Below, piece by piece: positions 22,095 to 52,502 of a stretch of DNA of 63,323 bases (position 1 is the stretch's first letter; each line of letters opens with the position of its first letter). The DNA comes from a virus (taxonomy: Duplodnaviria; Caudoviricetes). The DNA is taken from the IMG/VR virus record IMGVR_UViG_3300035661_000064, positions 1 through 63,323 of that record; one strand, 5' to 3'. The notes below the pieces were generated by a model that was not told where the DNA came from, made no database searches, and saw only the letters and a program-made list of their open reading frames with translations. Made by a program: the position numbers and the translations under genes.

Positions 22095-24788
22095 ATGTCA
22101 GCAATAGAAGATTACACTAACACTAAAACTAGAATGGTCTTAGACTCTTTAGCAGATATCAATTATGATGAAGAAATTCAATTAGACTTATCTGAAATCA
22201 CTAATCGATTCAATTCAAGAAAAATCATTACTTCTCAAAACTTCTCTTATGCAACTTCAATCTATGCAGCTATTTTAAGATCTCAAGAGATTAAACAGTT
22301 AATCATGAGAACAATCTTTAAAGATGCTAGACAGATTCAGTATAACTTCTTTCAACCTACAGACGATAAAGACTCTGTTTTCTTTCAAGTGAATGATTAC
22401 TTAATCAAATCAATCTTTGTTGAAATTGATATTCAACTAGTAGCTTTACTCTTAAAGAGCTTTAACCAAGAGAAAAAAGAACTTGAAGAAAATTCTGTAA
22501 TGGATAAACGTAGGAAGAAAAAGTTCTTAAACAAGATCACTCTTCAGATTGATATGTTTACTCATCACTTGTCTTTGTTAGAACGTTACCTTGTTTCAAA
22601 TTGTTATTCCACTTCAAATTACTATCTTCCTACATTGTACTTAACTAGGTTTAAGTACAATGTTTTATCAGAATCGTTTCCAGTTTTAAAAGTTCCTAAA
22701 AACTCTGACTCTAAAAGTGTCAATGAAATTAAATACCGTGAGTTTCGAATCAAGCCATTAAGAAACTTAATTGGTCAAGCAGTAGCAGTTTTCTTTGTAG
22801 AATCTTACAAACTGTTAGAAGGAATCTTTAAATCATCACCTTTAATCAGTAAGAAAGAGATTCATTCTGCGTTAGTAGTATCGCTCATTCCTAAATTCTT
22901 CTCTACTAAGTCTGTACGTCACTCACTAGTAGCTAACTTCAGTAATCCAGTCTTTCAAACTTATTTAGACAAGTATCAATCAGCAGACCCTGACATAATT
23001 GACAAGACAAATTACTTCACTTTGTTTATGAACAATACGCTAAATAAAGATGAAGATGCATTTAAAACTGATGTTTATGGAAGTCGAATGTTTATTGACT
23101 TCGATCTGTTGTTAAAGCGTACTATTGGAACTAAGCGTGACAATCAGGTATCGATTTCTAGCTATGTTCATGAGTATTCTAAGTTTACTTCAGTGATTGA
23201 AACCAATCAAGAGGAATATCCTTTCTCTGTAAAAGTCGATATTGAAAAGTTCTTTGCTTCAACTACTATCAAACATGTTATCTTAGCAATAACTGAAACG
23301 CTTTCAATCTCAACAAGTAACATTGACAAAGCAATGACAGTTAACTTACTAGCTGATTCGTTTGATTTTGAATACTTAAATGAATCTGGTAAGACTAAAA
23401 CTAACTGCAACTTAACAATTATGAGCCATCTTGAACATATCATGGCTAGATGGATAGGTGAGTTTTTAACTAAACAAATTAAAGCAAAGTTTGTTGAAAA
23501 CAATTTAGATGTTCAACTTAATCTTTACGTAGATGATTTCATTATACAAGCTAAAGATATAGCATCTCTGTCTGTTTCTAAAGAAATAGTAGAAAACACG
23601 ATTACCAACTTTGGTTATAAAGTCAGTTCTAAAACGTTAAAAGCAAACAAATCTCTTGTATATCTTCCTAATTTAGCAGACTATGTAGACTTTACTTCTA
23701 GTTATTTAGTAGAAACTGATTTTGAAATCAGTGAAAACACTCTTCGTTACTACGACTTAACTCCTGATACAAACCACACTGGAGAAGGACAAACCGATGA
23801 AGACAGAAGAACAGACTGTGCTGAAATACATGACGCTAAAAACATTTTAGATCTTAAATCCTTCTGCATAGCTTTTTACAAAGACATTGAAACTGTTTTA
23901 GCTGATCCGTTCAGCAATTCTACGCGACTAAGCTATTTTCAAATGGTGAAGCAAATGATTAGTTCGGATACAAAGCTTAGTAAAACATTTGCTCTAATTC
24001 TCAGTGAACAATCAACCTTACCAGATGCTGGTGCTCCATACTTAGGAAGCGACTCCGAATTCATAAATCGAACTGTCAGAGATCGTTGTACATCCCGAAC
24101 AGAACTGTTTATAAGCTTAAATCGCACTAAAAATCATAAACTGAACGAGCATCTTGAACACATAATGGATGCAATTCCTTTCATAACTAATTCAACAAAT
24201 TACTCATTGATCGTTCTGAAAAATCTATCGCTTCGTTTGTTCATGTACTTAAAGGAAATTGAGTACTATGTTATGTTTAGTCTTACTGACAGAGACTACA
24301 TTGAAAACTTAATCGATTCATCAGCATTCGAAATTGACAGCTTTGTAACAGAGTATCTGAACCAAGCAAACAATTCTACTTTAAATCTAACAAACATTGA
24401 GCTTGAATTGTTTAATGAAGTTAATGTTCTCAAGCTTTATCAATATTTGACTTTAAACACTACAAGAGGTTCTATGCGTTATAAAAGTATGATGTTTAAG
24501 CTTCTTTTAGTTCTTACAATCTTGTTTCCTCAAAAAGTAAAGTGGAATGTTTACTTGCTAAAGAAGCTTACTGACAACAGTGAACTACTGAATCGTTACT
24601 ACCCTGTACCAGTTAAAGAAGATATTTCATTGTTACAACGCGAAATGCTTTACTTCAATAAACGCTTTAACAATGAATACTACTTTCATGAATTGCAAAC
24701 AGGACGTTATGTATCTTACAGTTTAGCAAATTCTCAGTTAAACAGCTTGTTAAAAAATGAATTTGATTTTGGAATGAAAACCTCCTAA
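22095..24788 (+). CDS. Reverse transcriptase-like protein, 897 aa (Abi/UG-like architecture)
   Basis: YREFRIKPLRNLIGQ (block 2), VKVDIEKFFAS (motif A, D382), NLTIMSHLEHIMA (altered motif B), LYVDDFII (motif C, aa 478-481), FGYKVSSK (motif D); AGGAG RBS; early promoter 22048-22059 and late promoter 22016-22027. Confidence 0.85.
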   Translation: MSAIEDYTNTKTRMVLDSLADINYDEEIQLDLSEITNRFNSRKIITSQNFSYATSIYAAILRSQEIKQLIMRTIFKDARQIQYNFFQPTDDKDSVFFQVNDYLIKSIFVEIDIQLVALLLKSFNQEKKELEENSVMDKRRKKKFLNKITLQIDMFTHHLSLLERYLVSNCYSTSNYYLPTLYLTRFKYNVLSESFPVLKVPKNSDSKSVNEIKYREFRIKPLRNLIGQAVAVFFVESYKLLEGIFKSSPLISKKEIHSALVVSLIPKFFSTKSVRHSLVANFSNPVFQTYLDKYQSADPDIIDKTNYFTLFMNNTLNKDEDAFKTDVYGSRMFIDFDLLLKRTIGTKRDNQVSISSYVHEYSKFTSVIETNQEEYPFSVKVDIEKFFASTTIKHVILAITETLSISTSNIDKAMTVNLLADSFDFEYLNESGKTKTNCNLTIMSHLEHIMARWIGEFLTKQIKAKFVENNLDVQLNLYVDDFIIQAKDIASLSVSKEIVENTITNFGYKVSSKTLKANKSLVYLPNLADYVDFTSSYLVETDFEISENTLRYYDLTPDTNHTGEGQTDEDRRTDCAEIHDAKNILDLKSFCIAFYKDIETVLADPFSNSTRLSYFQMVKQMISSDTKLSKTFALILSEQSTLPDAGAPYLGSDSEFINRTVRDRCTSRTELFISLNRTKNHKLNEHLEHIMDAIPFITNSTNYSLIVLKNLSLRLFMYLKEIEYYVMFSLTDRDYIENLIDSSAFEIDSFVTEYLNQANNSTLNLTNIELELFNEVNVLKLYQYLTLNTTRGSMRYKSMMFKLLLVLTILFPQKVKWNVYLLKKLTDNSELLNRYYPVPVKEDISLLQREMLYFNKRFNNEYYFHELQTGRYVSYSLANSQLNSLLKNEFDFGMKTS

Positions 24789-39961: not shown

Positions 39962-40056
39962 TTAAGCAGGTAAGTATCATTACTTATCTGCTTCTTTTTT
40001 TAAGCATATATTATTTATCTGACCCTATTAAATAATCTAACACCGGAGTAAAACTG

Positions 40057-42276: not shown

Positions 42277-42305
42277 TTCCCTTAGCCTTCATAGGGCTAA
42301 GGGAA
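42277..42305. terminator. Bidirectional hairpin (CCCTTAGCC family)
   Basis: TTCCCTTAGCC-TTCATAG-GGCTAAGGGAA between convergent genes. Confidence 0.7.
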
Positions 42306-42314
42306 TACAGTGTT

Positions 42315-43604
42315 CTATTTTTTACCTATTGTCAGTTTAATAGGTTTAAAGCTTGTTAGAATGTCAATCTTGCTTGTTTTAACACTCATGTCATGAAACG
42401 ACTTCAAAGAAGTATTCAAAACAGCAGAACCGATTTTAGTAGAGAGAGACCCTGCTAACTTGCTACCAAACTCATACATAGCATCACCTGCACACATGTT
42501 ACAGATTTTGTCACTAGTGCAGAAGAGAGGAGAACGAATCTCAATTGTCTGACCGACTAAAGAATCTAGAACGTCTTTCTTTAAGAGAACTAATTTATTG
42601 CTAATCTTAGCAAATCTAAGATGATACAACATTGCATCTTTCTTAGTCAAGTTAACTTTATAGAGTCTCTTTGTTCCACAATCAGACTTCCTTTCGTCTA
42701 GTACTACATGACCTAAAGAAGCATTAAGAGACTTAACAATATAACCACCTATCTGCGTTCCTACAGCTCGGTTGAAGCTAGCTGTAGTAAGCATATCATT
42801 ATATTTCCACAAGTCTTCTTTAGGTACTCCATCAACTAAATTAGCAGTAGAAATGTTCATTTGAGAAAAGTCATTACTTCTAGGAATCGCTCCTCTAGCC
42901 ATAGACGTATTCTTGTAATTGTTACCAAAGCCTTTAGAAGCTCCACTGTTATAGATAGCCATACCCGGAGTGTCCATCTTAGTTAAAGTAGTTTCAGCTA
43001 AGTTAACTAAGTCTTTTTCAACAGCTATGTAAGCATTCACGTCATTAGAAGATATAGTTTCAGCATGTTTCTTGAATGCTGCTTTTTTAGCAGCTTCAAC
43101 TTCTTTCAATGGTCTGATGGTATCAATATCAAGACTGAGACTCATGAAGCTAGCTATACCAAATCCTAACCAATGCCATCTATCAATGAACTCATGCATA
43201 ATCTTATTGTCTATTTCATCTTCAACATAAGCTAATGCAATCCTATCTTCAATAAACCCTTTAGTAGATTTATCAAAAGGTTTGTTGATGTAACCAAATA
43301 TTCGTTTAAGGACAGGATCAAAGAAAGAAAAGTAGTTAAAGACTATTCGCCCTAAGGTTGTTTCAATCTTAGTTTCAGCTATTGTAAAGCCTAAGGAAGC
43401 TAATTCTTCTTTGGTAAAAAAGATAGGATACTCGTTGTTGTACTTTTGCTTATCAGATTCAGAATATGAGAAGCTGTCAAGAAGAAATTGAAGAGTAATC
43501 TTATGAGTAGGATCTGGATTTCCTTCATCGGGAAGTATAGATTTGATAAACTCTTGTTTCTGTGCTTCAGTCACAGGAGTTTTATTTCGAATATCAGTTG
43601 CCAT
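42315..43604 (-). CDS. Phage multisubunit RNA polymerase beta' C-terminal fragment (probably virion RNAP)
   Basis: TTLGRIVFN, SGASKG, TQIGGYIVKSL (bridge helix), DCGT, IRSPLFC...ICNMCAG, LKSFH (trigger loop); a late promoter at 43633-43644 suggests the virion-packaged enzyme. Confidence 0.9.
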   Translation of the reverse strand: MATDIRNKTPVTEAQKQEFIKSILPDEGNPDPTHKITLQFLLDSFSYSESDKQKYNNEYPIFFTKEELASLGFTIAETKIETTLGRIVFNYFSFFDPVLKRIFGYINKPFDKSTKGFIEDRIALAYVEDEIDNKIMHEFIDRWHWLGFGIASFMSLSLDIDTIRPLKEVEAAKKAAFKKHAETISSNDVNAYIAVEKDLVNLAETTLTKMDTPGMAIYNSGASKGFGNNYKNTSMARGAIPRSNDFSQMNISTANLVDGVPKEDLWKYNDMLTTASFNRAVGTQIGGYIVKSLNASLGHVVLDERKSDCGTKRLYKVNLTKKDAMLYHLRFAKISNKLVLLKKDVLDSLVGQTIEIRSPLFCTSDKICNMCAGDAMYEFGSKLAGSLSTKIGSAVLNTSLKSFHDMSVKTSKIDILTSFKPIKLTIGKK

Positions 43605-43672
43605 TGGAGTTTTGCCTTTTTAGAACTTGAATCATACTTGTGTTTTTAGGTGTTTTTGCTAAACATAACTAT

Positions 43673-44035
43673 GTAGACAAAAATGCTTCTAAACTGAAGT
43701 AATTGAACGATGTACTTGATGATACGCACAGTAAACTTGTAGAACCATATTGCTTGGTAAGGGCGGTTGTTCGCCACCGAACGTCTAAACGTATCATCAC
43801 AACGAGAAAGTCTTGTTCCAAGAGCAATTAAGCTGAAACACCGGAACTTACATACTGGAACTAAGTCATCCCAATTATATTGAAACGAAGTAACAATAGC
43901 GTTTACACACCACCTGTTTTTGAAGATTGTTTCCCATGATAGGATATCCGTTCATACCTTATTCAGCTTAAACGCTGATGCTGTGCATATCACTTTACAG
44001 TGGTATGCTAGAGGGTAGCGCGAAGGTAATAATTT
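43673..44035 (+). ncRNA. Candidate large structured ncRNA (~360 nt) with possible pseudoknot
   Basis: No ORF >=60 aa in 43605-44053; own late promoter AACA-TAACTA-TG (43662-43673); helices 43717-26/43790-99, 43749-57/43818-28 (crossing), 43828-37/43962-71; hairpins 43762-75, 43801-17, 43985-44008. Confidence 0.65.
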
Positions 44036-44120
44036 TTAAAGATCAAACATATATTAATTCTCTGAATGAAACAATGTTTCGTTTAAACCCATTTTAACTT
44101 TTATAAAGGAATTTACTATT

Positions 44121-44570
44121 ATGTACAACAAACAACGTATTGCAGACACTCTGTTGATTTTAGCAAGTAACAACGCATCGGTGGTAATGTCAGGGTCAGC
44201 GGCATTAGTGTTAAAGGATATCATTCCGTACGCGAATGACCTAGATATGTTTACGTTTGATAATTTTTCATTTTGGAAAGTCGTAGAGCTTTTCAAACTG
44301 AAAATCATTGAAAACACGGATATCACGACAAAGTCGTCCCTGTACGCGCATATCGAAACTAAAGATACCGACATCGAGATTTCATTTAACGATGAAACTT
44401 CGACCGATCCAATCGGTCTATTCTTAGAACAGTTTGCAAAACCGGAGAGACCTTACGTCACCTCCTTAGAGGAGACTATTAAGTTCTACGAGGAGGTCAT
44501 CAAGACTACTCGGAAAGACCCTACCAAGTTTGAAAATCGAATTCAGTTAATTAAAGACCATCTGAAATAA
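44121..44570 (+). CDS. Minimal Pol-beta-superfamily nucleotidyltransferase
   Basis: VVMSGSAAL...NDLDMF (GS-x-DxD) and later DIEIS; early promoter 44045-44056. Confidence 0.7.
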   Translation: MYNKQRIADTLLILASNNASVVMSGSAALVLKDIIPYANDLDMFTFDNFSFWKVVELFKLKIIENTDITTKSSLYAHIETKDTDIEISFNDETSTDPIGLFLEQFAKPERPYVTSLEETIKFYEEVIKTTRKDPTKFENRIQLIKDHLK

Positions 44571-44600
44571 GTCGGTTTACGTGGTGGGAAACAATGAATT

Positions 44601-44697
44601 GTATATAGTCAGTACGACCTTGTCACCAAAGGCGAATTTAACGAAGTAGCGGTTTTACTTCAATACATAAACCTTCTTAGGAGGTTTATGTTTTTTT
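44601..44697 (+). ncRNA. Candidate small RNA (~95 nt)
   Basis: Late promoter AACA-ATGAAT-TG (44590-44601), three small hairpins, then terminator ACATAAACCTTC-TTA-GGAGGTTTATGT with T-tract; no ORF. Confidence 0.4.
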
Positions 44698-44719
44698 CAT
44701 TCATGAGGACGAAACACTA

Positions 44720-45061
44720 ATGAAACTAGCCATAATTATTAAAGGCAATGCCAATATTATCTCTCTTCCTAGGTGGAGATCAAAAGCTAACAAATTCTAC
44801 TCTGAAATTGAAGAAATTCTAATCAAACGGGGTTATTCGGTTGAATTTGATCCGGGTTTAGATTTCACTAAACCAAAAGAAGCCGATTTATACGTTGCAC
44901 ATTCTCGCGGGATGAGTCGTTTGCAATACACTGATCCTAACGTACCGAGAATATATGTTGACGATTTCCTTCCAAAAGATCACCTAGATCTTTACGGTAA
45001 ACCACAAGATGCACATTTTATAGTAAGTGACAGTTTACGAGCTGAATTAGAACGGTGTTAG
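44720..45061 (+). CDS. Small hypothetical protein (possible alpha/beta-hydrolase-like)
   Basis: GAGG RBS; VAHSRG nucleophile-elbow-like motif and C-terminal DAHF. Confidence 0.45.
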   Translation: MKLAIIIKGNANIISLPRWRSKANKFYSEIEEILIKRGYSVEFDPGLDFTKPKEADLYVAHSRGMSRLQYTDPNVPRIYVDDFLPKDHLDLYGKPQDAHFIVSDSLRAELERC

Positions 45062-45125
45062 GGGATATTCATCTCTTTACGCTCACATCGAAACTTTTGA
45101 AAACCTTATAAAGACCATCTGAAAA
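45055..45125 (+). pseudogene. Collapsed relic of a nucleotidyltransferase paralog
   Basis: 45072-45095 encodes SLYAHIET like 44337-44360 with only synonymous differences; TAAAGACCATCTGAAA also matches 44552-44567. Confidence 0.6.
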
Positions 45126-45802: not shown

Positions 45803-46093
45803 CTACCAACCGTACTTGTTTACCCCCACCTGTTTGAGGAAGAATTCTTCCACGTCCTGATATCCGTCAATATCAGCGGCTGTCCAATCACCAGCGTAGG
45901 CGAAATAGAGGAGTTCTTGGTGGCCTTCTTGCCCAACGTCGATTTTCACAGTGGCGACTAAGTAGCCATTGATTGTATCGGCAAAACCACTCATCAACTT
46001 CTGCATTTCCCCCCAACTCGAAATCTCGACTGGTAGGGTTGCTCTCAAAGCTCCAATTGCAATGTGGATCTTGCGAACGGTAGAAGTAGTCAT
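45803..46093 (-). CDS. Small early protein, paralog A
   Basis: GGAGG RBS; MTTSTVRKIHI...EEFFLKQVGVNKYGW. Confidence 0.8.
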   Translation of the reverse strand: MTTSTVRKIHIAIGALRATLPVEISSWGEMQKLMSGFADTINGYLVATVKIDVGQEGHQELLYFAYAGDWTAADIDGYQDVEEFFLKQVGVNKYGW

Positions 46094-46357: not shown

Positions 46358-46648
46358 CTACCAACCGTACTTATTGATCCCAACCTGTTTGAGGAAGAAC
46401 TCCTCTACAGTTTGGAAACCTTCAATGTTAGCAGCGCACCAAGCGCCGCCATAACTGAAGAATAACAGCTCACGATGGGGTTCTTGTTTGAACCCCACGT
46501 CCATCTTTACAGTGGACACTGACGACCCATCGATTGACGAATTGTTCAACAGGGTCTGCAATGCAGACCAACTGGCGATTTCAATCGGCAATTCAATCGT
46601 CATTGAACCACTGTTGATGTGGATCTTGCGAACGGTAGAAGTAGTCAT
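46358..46648 (-). CDS. Small early protein, paralog B
   Basis: GGAGG RBS; MTTSTVRKIHI...EEFFLKQVGINKYGW. Confidence 0.8.
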   Translation of the reverse strand: MTTSTVRKIHINSGSMTIELPIEIASWSALQTLLNNSSIDGSSVSTVKMDVGFKQEPHRELLFFSYGGAWCAANIEGFQTVEEFFLKQVGINKYGW

Positions 46649-49479: not shown

Positions 49480-51222
49480 CTAAAACTCATCTTCTTCAGA
49501 TGTTTCTGTTATAGGATTTGTTTTAGCATGTTTACGAAAAGTGTTCAAAGACTTTTTAATAGCAGAGCGCCTATCAACATTCTCTTTAACAGAAGGTTCA
49601 GCTTTAGGATTAAACTCAGTTGAAGAAGGTTTAGCTGCTTCATTCATATGAAGATCGTCAAGAAGATCTCCTATGTTTAATACACCTATAGGAGCTTTCT
49701 CATTAATGTCATCTATCAAATGAGGAGTCTGTTTCCAGTTAGCAAAAGGTTGTGCAAAATAAATAGGTGCAGTGGGGTTAGGTTTACCACGGGACTTAAT
49801 TAGTTTGATTGTTTGAAACGACTTATGAAGAACTTTACTTAGCTCAATATAGATCAAGAACAAGAAATCGGTATTCTCTACCATTAGCTTCGATTCACCT
49901 ACAGACTTAGTACCAATCTTTTCAAGAACGTTTAAATTGCCTTTTTCAATACCTTCTTCAAGAGCAGCGATTGCTTCACTGTTAAGCTGAACAGCTGATG
50001 CAAGCATCACATTCTTAACTTTAGCAATAGTAGCAAATTCGTCAACTACTGCACCTAAGTCTAAACGGATGTCATTTCGTTTGTCAACTGGATTAATCCG
50101 TTTAGTGTAATCTTGAACAATTGCTTTAACACAGTAACCTAAGTTATTGTAGTAGTCAATGATGTTTTCAAGATCTTTGGTGTTAATAGATTTGTTACGA
50201 CGATATAAGAAAGCTAGAGCAAAACTATTGTCATTGTTGAAGCCTTCACTGTGAAACAAATCCATTACTTGCTTAGGAGTTTGTTTCTTAAACGGATTAG
50301 AAAGAACATACTCTTCTGGAAAGAAGAGTTCATAAATTCGTTGAGCAGTTTCAACTTGAGAGTTTTCACCTGAGATGTAAATAGCAATGTTGCGTTTACC
50401 TGTTGTTTGGTCTAAACGTTCAGGATTGTATTTCCAAATCCAAAACATGATTCTCATGAGGAATAAAGATTTACCTGAACCTGCTGGCCCACCAAACAAA
50501 TATTCTCTTCCTAACTCTAAACCACCTACTTCACCTAGTTGTCTATTCAATAATTGAAGTCCTGTCTTTAATACGTTAGTAGGGTCGTTTAACTTCTTAA
50601 TAGACTTTTCAAAGACAGCTTCAGCTCTATAGCTTTCTTCGTCAACTCCTAAGATGAAATCTTCTGCTTCGTCGTCGGAAAGAGTGGGAGATAGAGTCTT
50701 TCTAGTAACATCTAATGTTTCACAAAACTCTTGAACAAACTCTTCTAGGTCTCCCCCGAAGTCATTATTTTCAATTCGGCTTACTAGATCAATTAGCTCA
50801 TCTTTGTGCTTAAATAGACCAATGTAGTTTTTTCGGTTCTTGATGTATTTGACAATTAGACTATAGTCAATTTCATCATTAGCAGCTTTATCTTCAGCAC
50901 TAGCAAATTCATCTTCAACTACTTCAAGCTCATCTTCATTTGCAAAGTTAGATGTAATGACTGCTACTATATCATCAAGGCTCATTTCAGGATGTTCAAT
51001 AAATGTCTTACTTAGAAAGATGATTAAACTATAAAGCGTTTTAAGCCTAAATTCTTTAAACGATGAGATAATATCAAAGTCTAGACTTATAAGATCATTA
51101 CATAAAATTCGTTTTTCAAAAGGATTGATTTCTGCAAAGACTAAGCAGGCTAATATGCTGTTCAACATGTTAACATCTAAGTCAATTAAGACTTTCTTTT
51201 TTTGATTACCGTTATAACTCAT
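49480..51222 (-). CDS. dnaB: Replicative DnaB-like helicase
   Basis: LKTG, GGPAGSGKS, YISGEN, IVQDY, AVQLN, GES, KSR. Confidence 0.9.
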   Translation of the reverse strand: MSYNGNQKKKVLIDLDVNMLNSILACLVFAEINPFEKRILCNDLISLDFDIISSFKEFRLKTLYSLIIFLSKTFIEHPEMSLDDIVAVITSNFANEDELEVVEDEFASAEDKAANDEIDYSLIVKYIKNRKNYIGLFKHKDELIDLVSRIENNDFGGDLEEFVQEFCETLDVTRKTLSPTLSDDEAEDFILGVDEESYRAEAVFEKSIKKLNDPTNVLKTGLQLLNRQLGEVGGLELGREYLFGGPAGSGKSLFLMRIMFWIWKYNPERLDQTTGKRNIAIYISGENSQVETAQRIYELFFPEEYVLSNPFKKQTPKQVMDLFHSEGFNNDNSFALAFLYRRNKSINTKDLENIIDYYNNLGYCVKAIVQDYTKRINPVDKRNDIRLDLGAVVDEFATIAKVKNVMLASAVQLNSEAIAALEEGIEKGNLNVLEKIGTKSVGESKLMVENTDFLFLIYIELSKVLHKSFQTIKLIKSRGKPNPTAPIYFAQPFANWKQTPHLIDDINEKAPIGVLNIGDLLDDLHMNEAAKPSSTEFNPKAEPSVKENVDRRSAIKKSLNTFRKHAKTNPITETSEEDEF

Positions 51223-52502
51223 TGATCACCTTCTTTACCATCATCTAACCACTCGTTGATGTCATCAATTGTTACAGTTGTTTCACTCTTAGTAAATTCA
51301 GATAGAAATAGTGAAACTGCTTCACTTAGTTGATTGTTAGTTACTAACGCAGACAGTCTCATAGGAAGCTCAAACTCAGTTTGATTGTTTTCACTAGTGG
51401 TTTTAATCATTTCTTGAAGAGTTTCATGCTTAGACTTATTCACAGTGTCAACTACAATTCCTTTAGAAGTGTCAGTTAAGTAGATTTGTTCATCAATTGC
51501 TTTCTTGGTAGGTTGCAATGTAATATAGTCGTAATATTTAGATGACTTTAAGAGCTGAATGTAAGTATTAAACTGAGCAACTTGTTCGTCCTTAAACTTT
51601 TGTGTATAGAAGATTCGTAAGAAGTTAATAGGAGAGCTTTCAGATTGAAATAGGCTTTCAACTACAGGAATAAACTCGTTTGGAGATGAACAGCTTTTCA
51701 GAATGTGCTCTAGCGTAAATGACTGATACACTGGCGCTAGGTTGTTTTCAATTAACTTGTAAGACCATTTTTGAGGATTTTCAAGATTGATTGTGTAATG
51801 AAGAAAACCCTTTTTCTCAACTTCAAGATGAGAGTTTCGACTAAACGCACCATGATAGATTAACGAACCTATTGTAATTGAATGAGTATGAATGTGACCA
51901 CACCCTACAAACGTTGAACTGATTCGCTTTAATTCTTTCTCATCAAAGACTACATGGTTAGGATGATCTTTCTCAGTTTCAATGATCTTAGACAAGAATG
52001 CTTTTGACTTAATTGTGCCATGCATGAATACAGCAAAGTAAGTATTATCAGGAACATCGTAAATTAACTTAGAATAGTAAGCTTTCTCATCTGAAGGATA
52101 TTCTTCAGGAAGAAGTAAGAACTTAAAACCTTCTCCTAGCTCTACAGCTTGAGCTTTGTTTGCAAATACAAATAACTCAGAAGGAATGATTTCCTGAATC
52201 AACGGAACTATCTTTTCAAGCTGATCAAAATCGTGTGTATACGTTCCTCTCATTAAGAAGAATACAATCTCTTTTTCTTTACAGATGTTAGCTAGTTCAA
52301 TGAAGAACTTAATTGAGTTTTCTACTACTTTAGAATTGAACTCTAATCGATAATCAAAGAAATCTCCATCTAATACTAAGATGTCTACTTCGTTATTTCG
52401 CAAATAACTAGTTAGCAGAGAGAGTTCTTTAAAGATATCATGTTTTCTCTTTTTAACATGAACATCACCGAACTGAATAATAGACAATATATTTTCACTC
52501 AT
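51219..52502 (-). CDS. sbcD: SbcD/Mre11-like nuclease
   Basis: GDVH, GDFFD, RGTYTHD, MHGT, GHIH metallophosphoesterase motifs; early promoter 52535-52546. Confidence 0.85.
   Translation of the reverse strand: MSENILSIIQFGDVHVKKRKHDIFKELSLLTSYLRNNEVDILVLDGDFFDYRLEFNSKVVENSIKFFIELANICKEKEIVFFLMRGTYTHDFDQLEKIVPLIQEIIPSELFVFANKAQAVELGEGFKFLLLPEEYPSDEKAYYSKLIYDVPDNTYFAVFMHGTIKSKAFLSKIIETEKDHPNHVVFDEKELKRISSTFVGCGHIHTHSITIGSLIYHGAFSRNSHLEVEKKGFLHYTINLENPQKWSYKLIENNLAPVYQSFTLEHILKSCSSPNEFIPVVESLFQSESSPINFLRIFYTQKFKDEQVAQFNTYIQLLKSSKYYDYITLQPTKKAIDEQIYLTDTSKGIVVDTVNKSKHETLQEMIKTTSENNQTEFELPMRLSALVTNNQLSEAVSLFLSEFTKSETTVTIDDINEWLDDGKEGDQ

Follow-up and report, generated by a model that had tools for sequence, protein, structure and literature searches.

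Giant phages related to AR9 and phiKZ have their genomes transcribed by their own multisubunit RNA polymerases. GOLLD and ROOL are large structured RNAs associated with phages, whose function is not known. The put RNAs of HK022 (about 70 nt, two stem-loops) occur twice in the genome, in each case immediately behind a promoter, and act in cis on the host polymerase as a folded leader RNA; in type III toxin-antitoxin systems, ToxI-like, a non-coding RNA built of tandemly repeated short antitoxin units precedes the gene of the toxin. Neither structured leaders nor orphan RNAs of phages are thus new in kind. A 2026 review mentions non-coding RNAs of phiKZ that may have a regulatory function (PMC13282480). 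For AR9, Lavysh et al. (2017) give the late promoter consensus AACA-(6N)-T(A/G), whose last base is the start, and the early consensus AAATATATATTAT-(6N)-G, and describe continuously expressed genes that are each preceded by promoters of the two types (PMC5312081).

The element presented here (43662–44026, 365 nt) is a real non-coding stretch. We tentatively read it as a conserved non-coding module, best explained as a plus-strand RNA and late-only leader of the downstream gene, a preference that we hold somewhat short of probable. By sequence comparison the element appears to belong to no described family, and to depart from the arrangement in which late and early promoters usually stand close together. 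As in the AR9 genes with both promoter types, a late and an early motif precede one gene; the element, however, puts 373 nt of conserved, foldable sequence between them, against 1–26 nt at four other loci of the window. It resembles GOLLD and ROOL as a large phage non-coding RNA candidate with a conserved core and a variable region, but it is smaller, known in one lineage and not beside tRNA genes (0 tRNAs in the window, i.e. the whole 63,323-base stretch analysed), and gave no plausible match, even at E ≤ 10, to covariance models among which we assume both families to be. With HK022 put it shares two copies, a position close to the promoter and a candidate folded leader, a likeness that we take as analogy only. 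Like ToxI, the candidate RNA stands directly before the gene of a small enzyme, and toxins are found in the fold group of that enzyme (AbiEii-like nucleotidyltransferases); on the other hand the gene has a separate promoter before it, its product is not an endoribonuclease, and the element is devoid of tandem repeats, so that a type III toxin-antitoxin RNA was rejected. A single direct repeat was detected, a 12-nt pair at 43612–43649, and it falls outside the element.

A long divergent spacer in a distant relative of AR9

The window is a virus record judged about 25% complete. The phage is a distant relative of AR9, a uracil-DNA jumbo phage, because the product of 42315–43604 is 40.4% identical to AR9/PBS1 proteins (tblastn, GenBank phages) and its AR9 counterpart is g264, annotated as the C-terminal portion of the beta subunit of the virion polymerase. 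This product matches phrog_2962 (RNA polymerase beta subunit) with an E value of 2.6e-64, from residue 58 of the protein on, which is consistent with a complete gene. The phage is isolated: among 14 matches in a large protein collection one fragment reaches 70% identity and the others at most 38%, and the 65 IMG/VR polymerase loci collected with a profile built on 13 homologs range from 26 to 44%. The element sits in the 516-nt divergent spacer 43605–44120, while the spacer before the homologous polymerase gene of AR9 measures only about 115 nt. The genes, promoter motifs and terminator-like site around it are the following:

42315–43604, minus strand: left neighbour, virion RNA polymerase beta gene, C-terminal part, homolog of AR9 g264
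43633–43644, minus strand: mirror-image motif of late-promoter type, AACACAAGTATG, from which transcription of the polymerase gene would start at G43633 (29 nt upstream of the ATG)
43662–43673, plus strand: motif of late-promoter type, AACATAACTATG, with G43673 as predicted start; the second copy is homologous from 43662 on
44045–44064, plus strand: motif of early-promoter type, AAACATATATTAATTCTCTG, with G44064 as predicted start (57 nt upstream of the ATG)
44121–44570, plus strand: right neighbour, whose product of 149 aa has a GS...DLD motif and, by predicted structure match, a minimal nucleotidyltransferase fold
44665–44691, plus strand: first strong terminator-like site downstream, a 12-bp stem followed by six T (TTTTTTCATT)

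The first-pass annotation had called the right neighbour a nucleotidyltransferase. The predicted structure agrees: the Atlas model of the 149-aa protein matches DUF6036, DUF2204, AbiEii and aminoglycoside adenylyltransferase clusters with TM scores of 0.62–0.69, so that the minimal fold provides a lead as to its function. The sequence itself is solitary, with zero Pfam matches at E ≤ 1, no match in GenBank phages at E ≤ 0.01 (tblastn), and itself as the sole match among 29 candidates of a word-index search; locus searches with the single protein of each neighbour of the element found nothing.

Some other genes deserve mention. The window's polymerase gene is in one piece; in the Staphylococcus jumbo phages Machias, AH12 and LY01 (GenBank) the polymerase homologs match in two separated pieces, which suggests an insertion, e.g. 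an intron or intein. On the minus strand, 49480–51222 matches a divergent DnaB-like ATPase (PF20307, E 2.4e-28) and overlaps by 4 nt the adjoining 51219–52502, which matches a calcineurin-like phosphoesterase (PF00149, E 1.3e-4).

Promoter motifs and terminators

AACA-N6-TR as a whole is not enriched in the window (117 found, 133 expected). The form AACA-N6-TG is found 16 times in 5306 nt of spacers and 24 times in 58017 nt of genes, i.e. 3.02 against 0.41 per kb, a 7-fold difference, and 14 of the 16 spacer copies lie 25–72 nt upstream of a gene start on the same strand; the exceptions are those ending at 44601 (119 nt from the gene) and at 43673 (448 nt). This spacer enrichment together with the usual spacing suggests that the AR9 late-promoter rule holds in this distant relative. 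The late promoter proposed at the start of the element is credible: AACATAACTATG fits the AR9 late consensus and would place the start at G43673.

The early-type 15-mer AACATATATTAATTC is matched 24 times with at most 3 mismatches in the window, against 7.5 expected. Twelve of the 16 strict copies are in spacers, most of them 16–113 nt upstream of a gene, and in many of the copies TG occupies the place where AR9 starts. As it recurs before genes the motif reads tcaAACATATATTAWT-N4-TG, which resembles the early promoter of AR9 down to the G at its start; strict sites include 4661(-), 6336(+), 18221(-), 38467(+), 40003(+), 44046(+), 45756(-), 46172(-) and 46726(-). Two tandem minus-strand ORFs of 96 aa (45803–46093 and 46358–46648), paralogs 60% identical (E 5e-44), have one early-type promoter apiece; neither belongs to a Pfam or PHROG family, and their GC content (0.46–0.51, for 0.345 in the window) is unusually rich for this phage.

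On the minus strand, no late- or early-type promoter facing the element was found from 43644 to 44959. On the plus strand the early motif comes after the element in both copies known (see below), and in both the element exactly fills the gap between the late and the early motif.

Strong hairpin-plus-T-run sites follow several genes (39964–39993, 44665–44691, 45212–45187 and 47981–47960). Terminators in this phage have 9–13-bp stems with the T-run directly after, and the terminator scan found no such site at the 3' end of the element. This goes against the initial proposal of a discrete RNA of about 360 nt, since strong terminators end other genes.

The element does not look like a gene

The spacer was described from the outset as the longest ORF-free stretch and as richer in GC than the other spacers, and both hold: counting ORFs of at least 60 aa it extends over 449 nt, for 253 nt in the runner-up, and the GC content of 43662–44026 is 0.397, compared with 0.345 for the window and 0.26–0.35 across nine other listed gaps.

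The only long stop-free frame across the element is on the minus strand, 43951–43649, and counts 101 codons. It has no ATG, GTG or TTG until its last 43 codons, it is rich in W and C, and its codon score of 0.013 is about 4 standard deviations below that of the phage genes (0.346 ± 0.081 in 100-codon windows). Nine frame fragments of the element had no Pfam or PHROG match at E 0.08 or better, and tblastn of its frames against the window and 81 loci gave nothing under E 0.27. A full HMMER pass of the frame through 1.84 billion representatives returned only 3 matches; the two that were inspected are unrelated repeat proteins, with a score inflated by the repeats. The element as a coding region was rejected on the codon score, the absence of start codons and the similarity searches. 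An antisense ORF next to it, 44054–44374, overlaps the gene whose product has a confident predicted fold.

Inverted repeats and predicted folding

The two perfect 10-bp inverted repeats and the three local hairpins announced by the first-pass annotation are present, as sequences, where it placed them. Both arms of the crossing pair that it proposed as a possible pseudoknot are in place too; they would pair only with a 2-nt bulge.

43717–43726 / 43790–43799, plus strand: arms of helix A, TGATGATACG / CGTATCATCA, perfect 10-bp inverted repeat
43717–43799, plus strand: predicted helix A domain, enclosing small hairpins, folding z -1.64
43749–43757 / 43818–43828, plus strand: arms of the proposed pseudoknot, ATTGCTTGG / CCAAGAGCAAT, by eye, with a 2-nt bulge
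43762–43775, plus strand: hairpin GGCG-GTTGTT-CGCC, with the G-C pair 43763–43774
43801–43817, plus strand: hairpin AACGAGA-AAG-TCTTGTT, with a G-T wobble, pairing on the plus strand only
43828–43837 / 43962–43971, plus strand: arms of helix B, TTAAGCTGAA / TTCAGCTTAA, perfect 10-bp inverted repeat
43828–43971, plus strand: predicted helix B domain, bounded by this perfect repeat
43985–44008, plus strand: 10-bp hairpin GCATATCACT-TTAC-AGTGGTATGC, inside conserved block 2

Helix B competes with a local hairpin, TCAGC-TTAAAC-GCTGA. Three of the proposed hairpins hold G-T wobbles, which are able to pair on the plus strand alone. At least two perfect 10-bp inverted repeats are found in 1.2% of 1000 dinucleotide shuffles (mean 0.187) and in 12.3% of 487 sliding 516-nt windows of the same contig (mean 0.62). 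The folding z of the whole element is -1.52 for the plus strand, where 6 of 100 shuffles fold equally well, and -2.09 for the minus strand, where 3 of 100 do; plus-strand sub-domains range from -1.39 to -2.94. The beyond-chance support given by the window alone is thus modest for both repeats and folding, and a structured RNA is not established from it.

A second copy with two conserved blocks

DNA contigs of four metagenome runs (X1–X4) were aligned to 42300–45100. In 4/4 runs a second copy of the element was found in another contig, whose flanks are unlike those of the window. It matches 43662–43757 and 43951–44026, in the same order and orientation, with 178 other letters in place of the 193-nt centre; in run X1 the first matching piece is visible only from 43717. 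The homology between the copies starts exactly at the late-type AACA (43662) and stops at 44026, 19 nt before the early promoter motif. The read depths of the second-copy and window contigs are 17.4/17.3, 7.09/6.2, 5.09/6.56 and 3.5/2.6 in the four runs. Because these depths track those of the window's contig in all four, the second copy probably belongs to the phage genome of the window itself, beyond the 25% covered here, or to that of a very close phage. In X1, moreover, a 25-mer from the early promoter region of the window recurs unchanged on the 9.7-kb second-copy contig.

The comparison divides the element as follows:

43674–43716, plus strand: poorly conserved 5' segment
43717–43757, plus strand: conserved block 1, 40/41 identical, holding the 5' arms of helix A and of the proposed pseudoknot
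43758–43950, plus strand: variable centre, 193 nt
43951–44026, plus strand: conserved block 2, 71/76 identical, including the hairpin 43985–44008

Outside the two blocks identity between the copies is below 80%. The piece matching 43662–43757 has 11 mismatches and 9 deleted bases; differences were listed only far from the ends of a matching piece, and those listed are all at 43678–43716. Behind block 1, a 30-letter loose end diverges by about a third (hand alignment). Counted net, the copies differ in length by 9 nt and by 15 nt, each a multiple of three, as would also be the case in a coding region. Such uneven conservation would not be expected of uniform neutral decay, and the comparison supports a non-uniform constraint on the element.

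Two differences bear on pairing in this one other copy. In the hairpin 43762–43775 the G-C pair 43763–43774 of the window becomes A-T (GACG...CGTC), both sides having changed, as read by eye from the loose end behind 43757. In block 2, G43983A turns the G-T wobble with T44009 into an A-T pair. The structural support from the second copy consists of this double change and this wobble-to-pair change.

No relatives found in the phages and RNA families searched

A search of the whole window with Rfam 15 (4227 models) gave zero matches at gathering thresholds, in agreement with the view of the element as unclassified; we assume these models to include group I and II introns, RNase P, tmRNA, 6S, GOLLD, ROOL, HEARO, OLE and the riboswitches. 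Relaxing the search of 43400–44300 to E ≤ 10 yielded 4 matches with E ≥ 3.2, at 15.9–18 bits for gathering scores of 30–67, to implausible families, e.g. snoRNA and miRNA, which we took as noise. The element had also been said to lack tmRNA ends, and ARAGORN indeed reported 0 tRNA or tmRNA genes in the window.

The 516-nt spacer had no match in GenBank phages, and two of its sub-regions only 25–28-nt chance matches there (E 1–10). Exact and gapped patterns of the element, one of them built only from positions identical in the second copy, retrieved nothing or chance matches from viral, metagenome and genome contig collections; the loci brought up by patterns (L002–L006, L007, L008 and L087) were checked, found unrelated and dropped. 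Of the 65 polymerase loci 45 were taken further, and all but two of these (L016 and L019) gave whole records of related jumbo phages, 43 in total, where BLAST found nothing longer than 46 nt, the best E value being 0.0038 over 29 nt. Covariance models of 43715–43830 and 43951–44026, built on the window sequence alone, scored at E ≤ 1 in 2/43 and 1/43 records respectively, with at best 15.8 and 14 bits, which were counted as noise. At the polymerase loci themselves no comparable long spacer was seen directly upstream, save a 376-nt gap in L049, and no other copy of the element was found within the 63-kb window. As the GenBank, collection and 43-record searches found no credible homolog, the element is to be regarded as known from this one phage lineage only.

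Other kinds of elements were considered. A group I or II intron was rejected: the element lies between divergent genes and does not interrupt a gene. A miniature inverted-repeat transposable element was rejected as well, since no inverted repeat joins the ends and the element has just one further copy; for a target duplication the check was by eye.

A proposed late-only leader and the competing readings

The late-only 5' leader is the simpler reading because no terminator follows the element and an early promoter precedes the gene: with no terminator in the way, a late transcript would most simply continue through the 149-aa gene to 44691. We infer the transcription of the element, its strand, the read-through and any regulatory effect. 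The late (non-virion) RNA polymerase of the phage would start at G43673 from AACATAACTATG and produce, on the plus strand, about 355 nt of folded RNA; it would then run on over the early promoter 44045–44064 into 44121–44570, as far as the terminator 44665–44691. Late messages of the 149-aa gene would so carry a 448-nt structured leader, and early messages from G44064 a leader of only 57 nt. With its two sequence-constrained blocks (43717–43757 and 43951–44026) around a variable centre, the leader would then be cis-acting, whether it influences how the late transcript is stabilised, processed or translated or influences the polymerase that produces it. A masking of the ribosome site by the leader was not used as evidence: the predicted probability that the site is unpaired is 0.39 in the late and 0.61 in the early transcript, a slight difference, which moreover involves the variable centre.

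Several points speak against a leader. The folding is unremarkable and slightly better on the minus strand; the block pattern could come from patchy recombination, which is common in phages; and the T-run 44034–44038 after the window's element hints at a 3' end, but is missing behind the second copy. If the reading is true, the position of a conserved, folded and late-only leader between a late and an early promoter would give a concrete handle on how these phages keep the early and late versions of one message distinct. The element should be taken as a lead, coming from one uncultured lineage with one further copy and one compensatory pair.

The element might instead be a non-functional remnant, either a decayed gene (e.g. 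a homing endonuclease gene) or a recombination patch moved between promoter cassettes, its repeats being fortuitous; we consider this rather unlikely. In its favour, the GC content of 0.397 resembles that of coding DNA and not of spacers, the minus strand offers its 101-codon stop-free frame, the copies differ by multiples of three, neither the inverted-repeat counts nor the folding z are unusual, a homing endonuclease gene adjoins the homologous polymerase gene in AR9, and none of the 43 related records searched has the element. Against a former gene, however, no frame retains protein similarity and the codon score is far below that of phage genes; and neutral decay would hardly leave a 40/41 block adjoining sequence diverged by about a third, or make the one visible stem change a compensatory one.

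A stand-alone late non-coding RNA of about 355 nt, ended or cut near 44026–44038 and acting in trans, perhaps with the nucleotidyltransferase, seems unlikely to us. It can claim the promoter, the conservation and the compensatory evidence on exactly the same terms as the leader, as well as the neighbouring protein with its nucleotidyltransferase fold. It would also explain a bounded module, the homology with the second copy stopping at 44026, before the early promoter; and in the window ACCTT (43956–43960) can pair by eye with AAGGT (44023–44027) and close a 3' domain, with the T-run six bases later. Nevertheless the terminator scan is empty at this 3' end, the T-run does not recur behind the second copy, and the latter is probably not beside a like gene, because the nucleotidyltransferase-fold protein has no detectable paralog. 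The orphan reverse transcriptase suggested as another partner finds no support: it is 20 kb away, and its RVT_1 score of 18.3 bits is below the 29.6-bit cut-off. A retron or RT-associated RNA was rejected, the only RVT_1-like match being that far from the element and not adjacent; the weak match (23208–23633) is in an 897-aa ORF, 22095–24788 on the plus strand, which has no Pfam match at E ≤ 0.001.

To a bolder version we give little credence: a new family of large structured RNA that the genome keeps in two or more copies, that is transcribed exclusively late by the non-canonical RNA polymerase of the phage and that acts as an RNA machine or decoy. Such an RNA could modify the transcribing phage polymerase in cis, as put does, or alternatively be the substrate or the antidote of the adjacent AbiEii/DUF6036-like nucleotidyltransferase. 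Should the RNA act on its own, a new family would be added to the few large phage RNAs known.

That the inverted repeats act as DNA, e.g. in a region binding a replication or transcription factor, is improbable. The position between divergent promoters in both copies, the conservation of the blocks in sequence and not in pairing alone, and a folding signal roughly equal on the two strands would suit it; but with 41 and 76 nt the blocks exceed what one expects of binding sites, no short motif is reiterated (the lone 12-nt direct repeat being outside the element), and the element is richer in GC than its surroundings, unlike typical origins.

Finally, a small minus-strand protein gene with an unusual start codon, in the frame 43951–43649, is scarcely credible: the 101 stop-free codons in a 35% GC genome and the length differences in multiples of three are outweighed by the lack of ATG, GTG or TTG before the last 43 codons, a codon score far below that of the phage genes, a W- and C-rich composition, the absence of any promoter motif facing the frame, and inspected matches that are repeat-protein artefacts only.

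A late-type motif behind the 149-aa gene

A further observation concerns the region 44590–44697, plus strand. After the stop of the 149-aa gene lies a late-promoter-like AACAATGAATTG, with its start at G44601; the terminator-like hairpin 44665–44691 comes 64 nt later, before the gene at 44720. By its motifs this region could be a small RNA of about 95 nt, or simply the terminator of the upstream gene.
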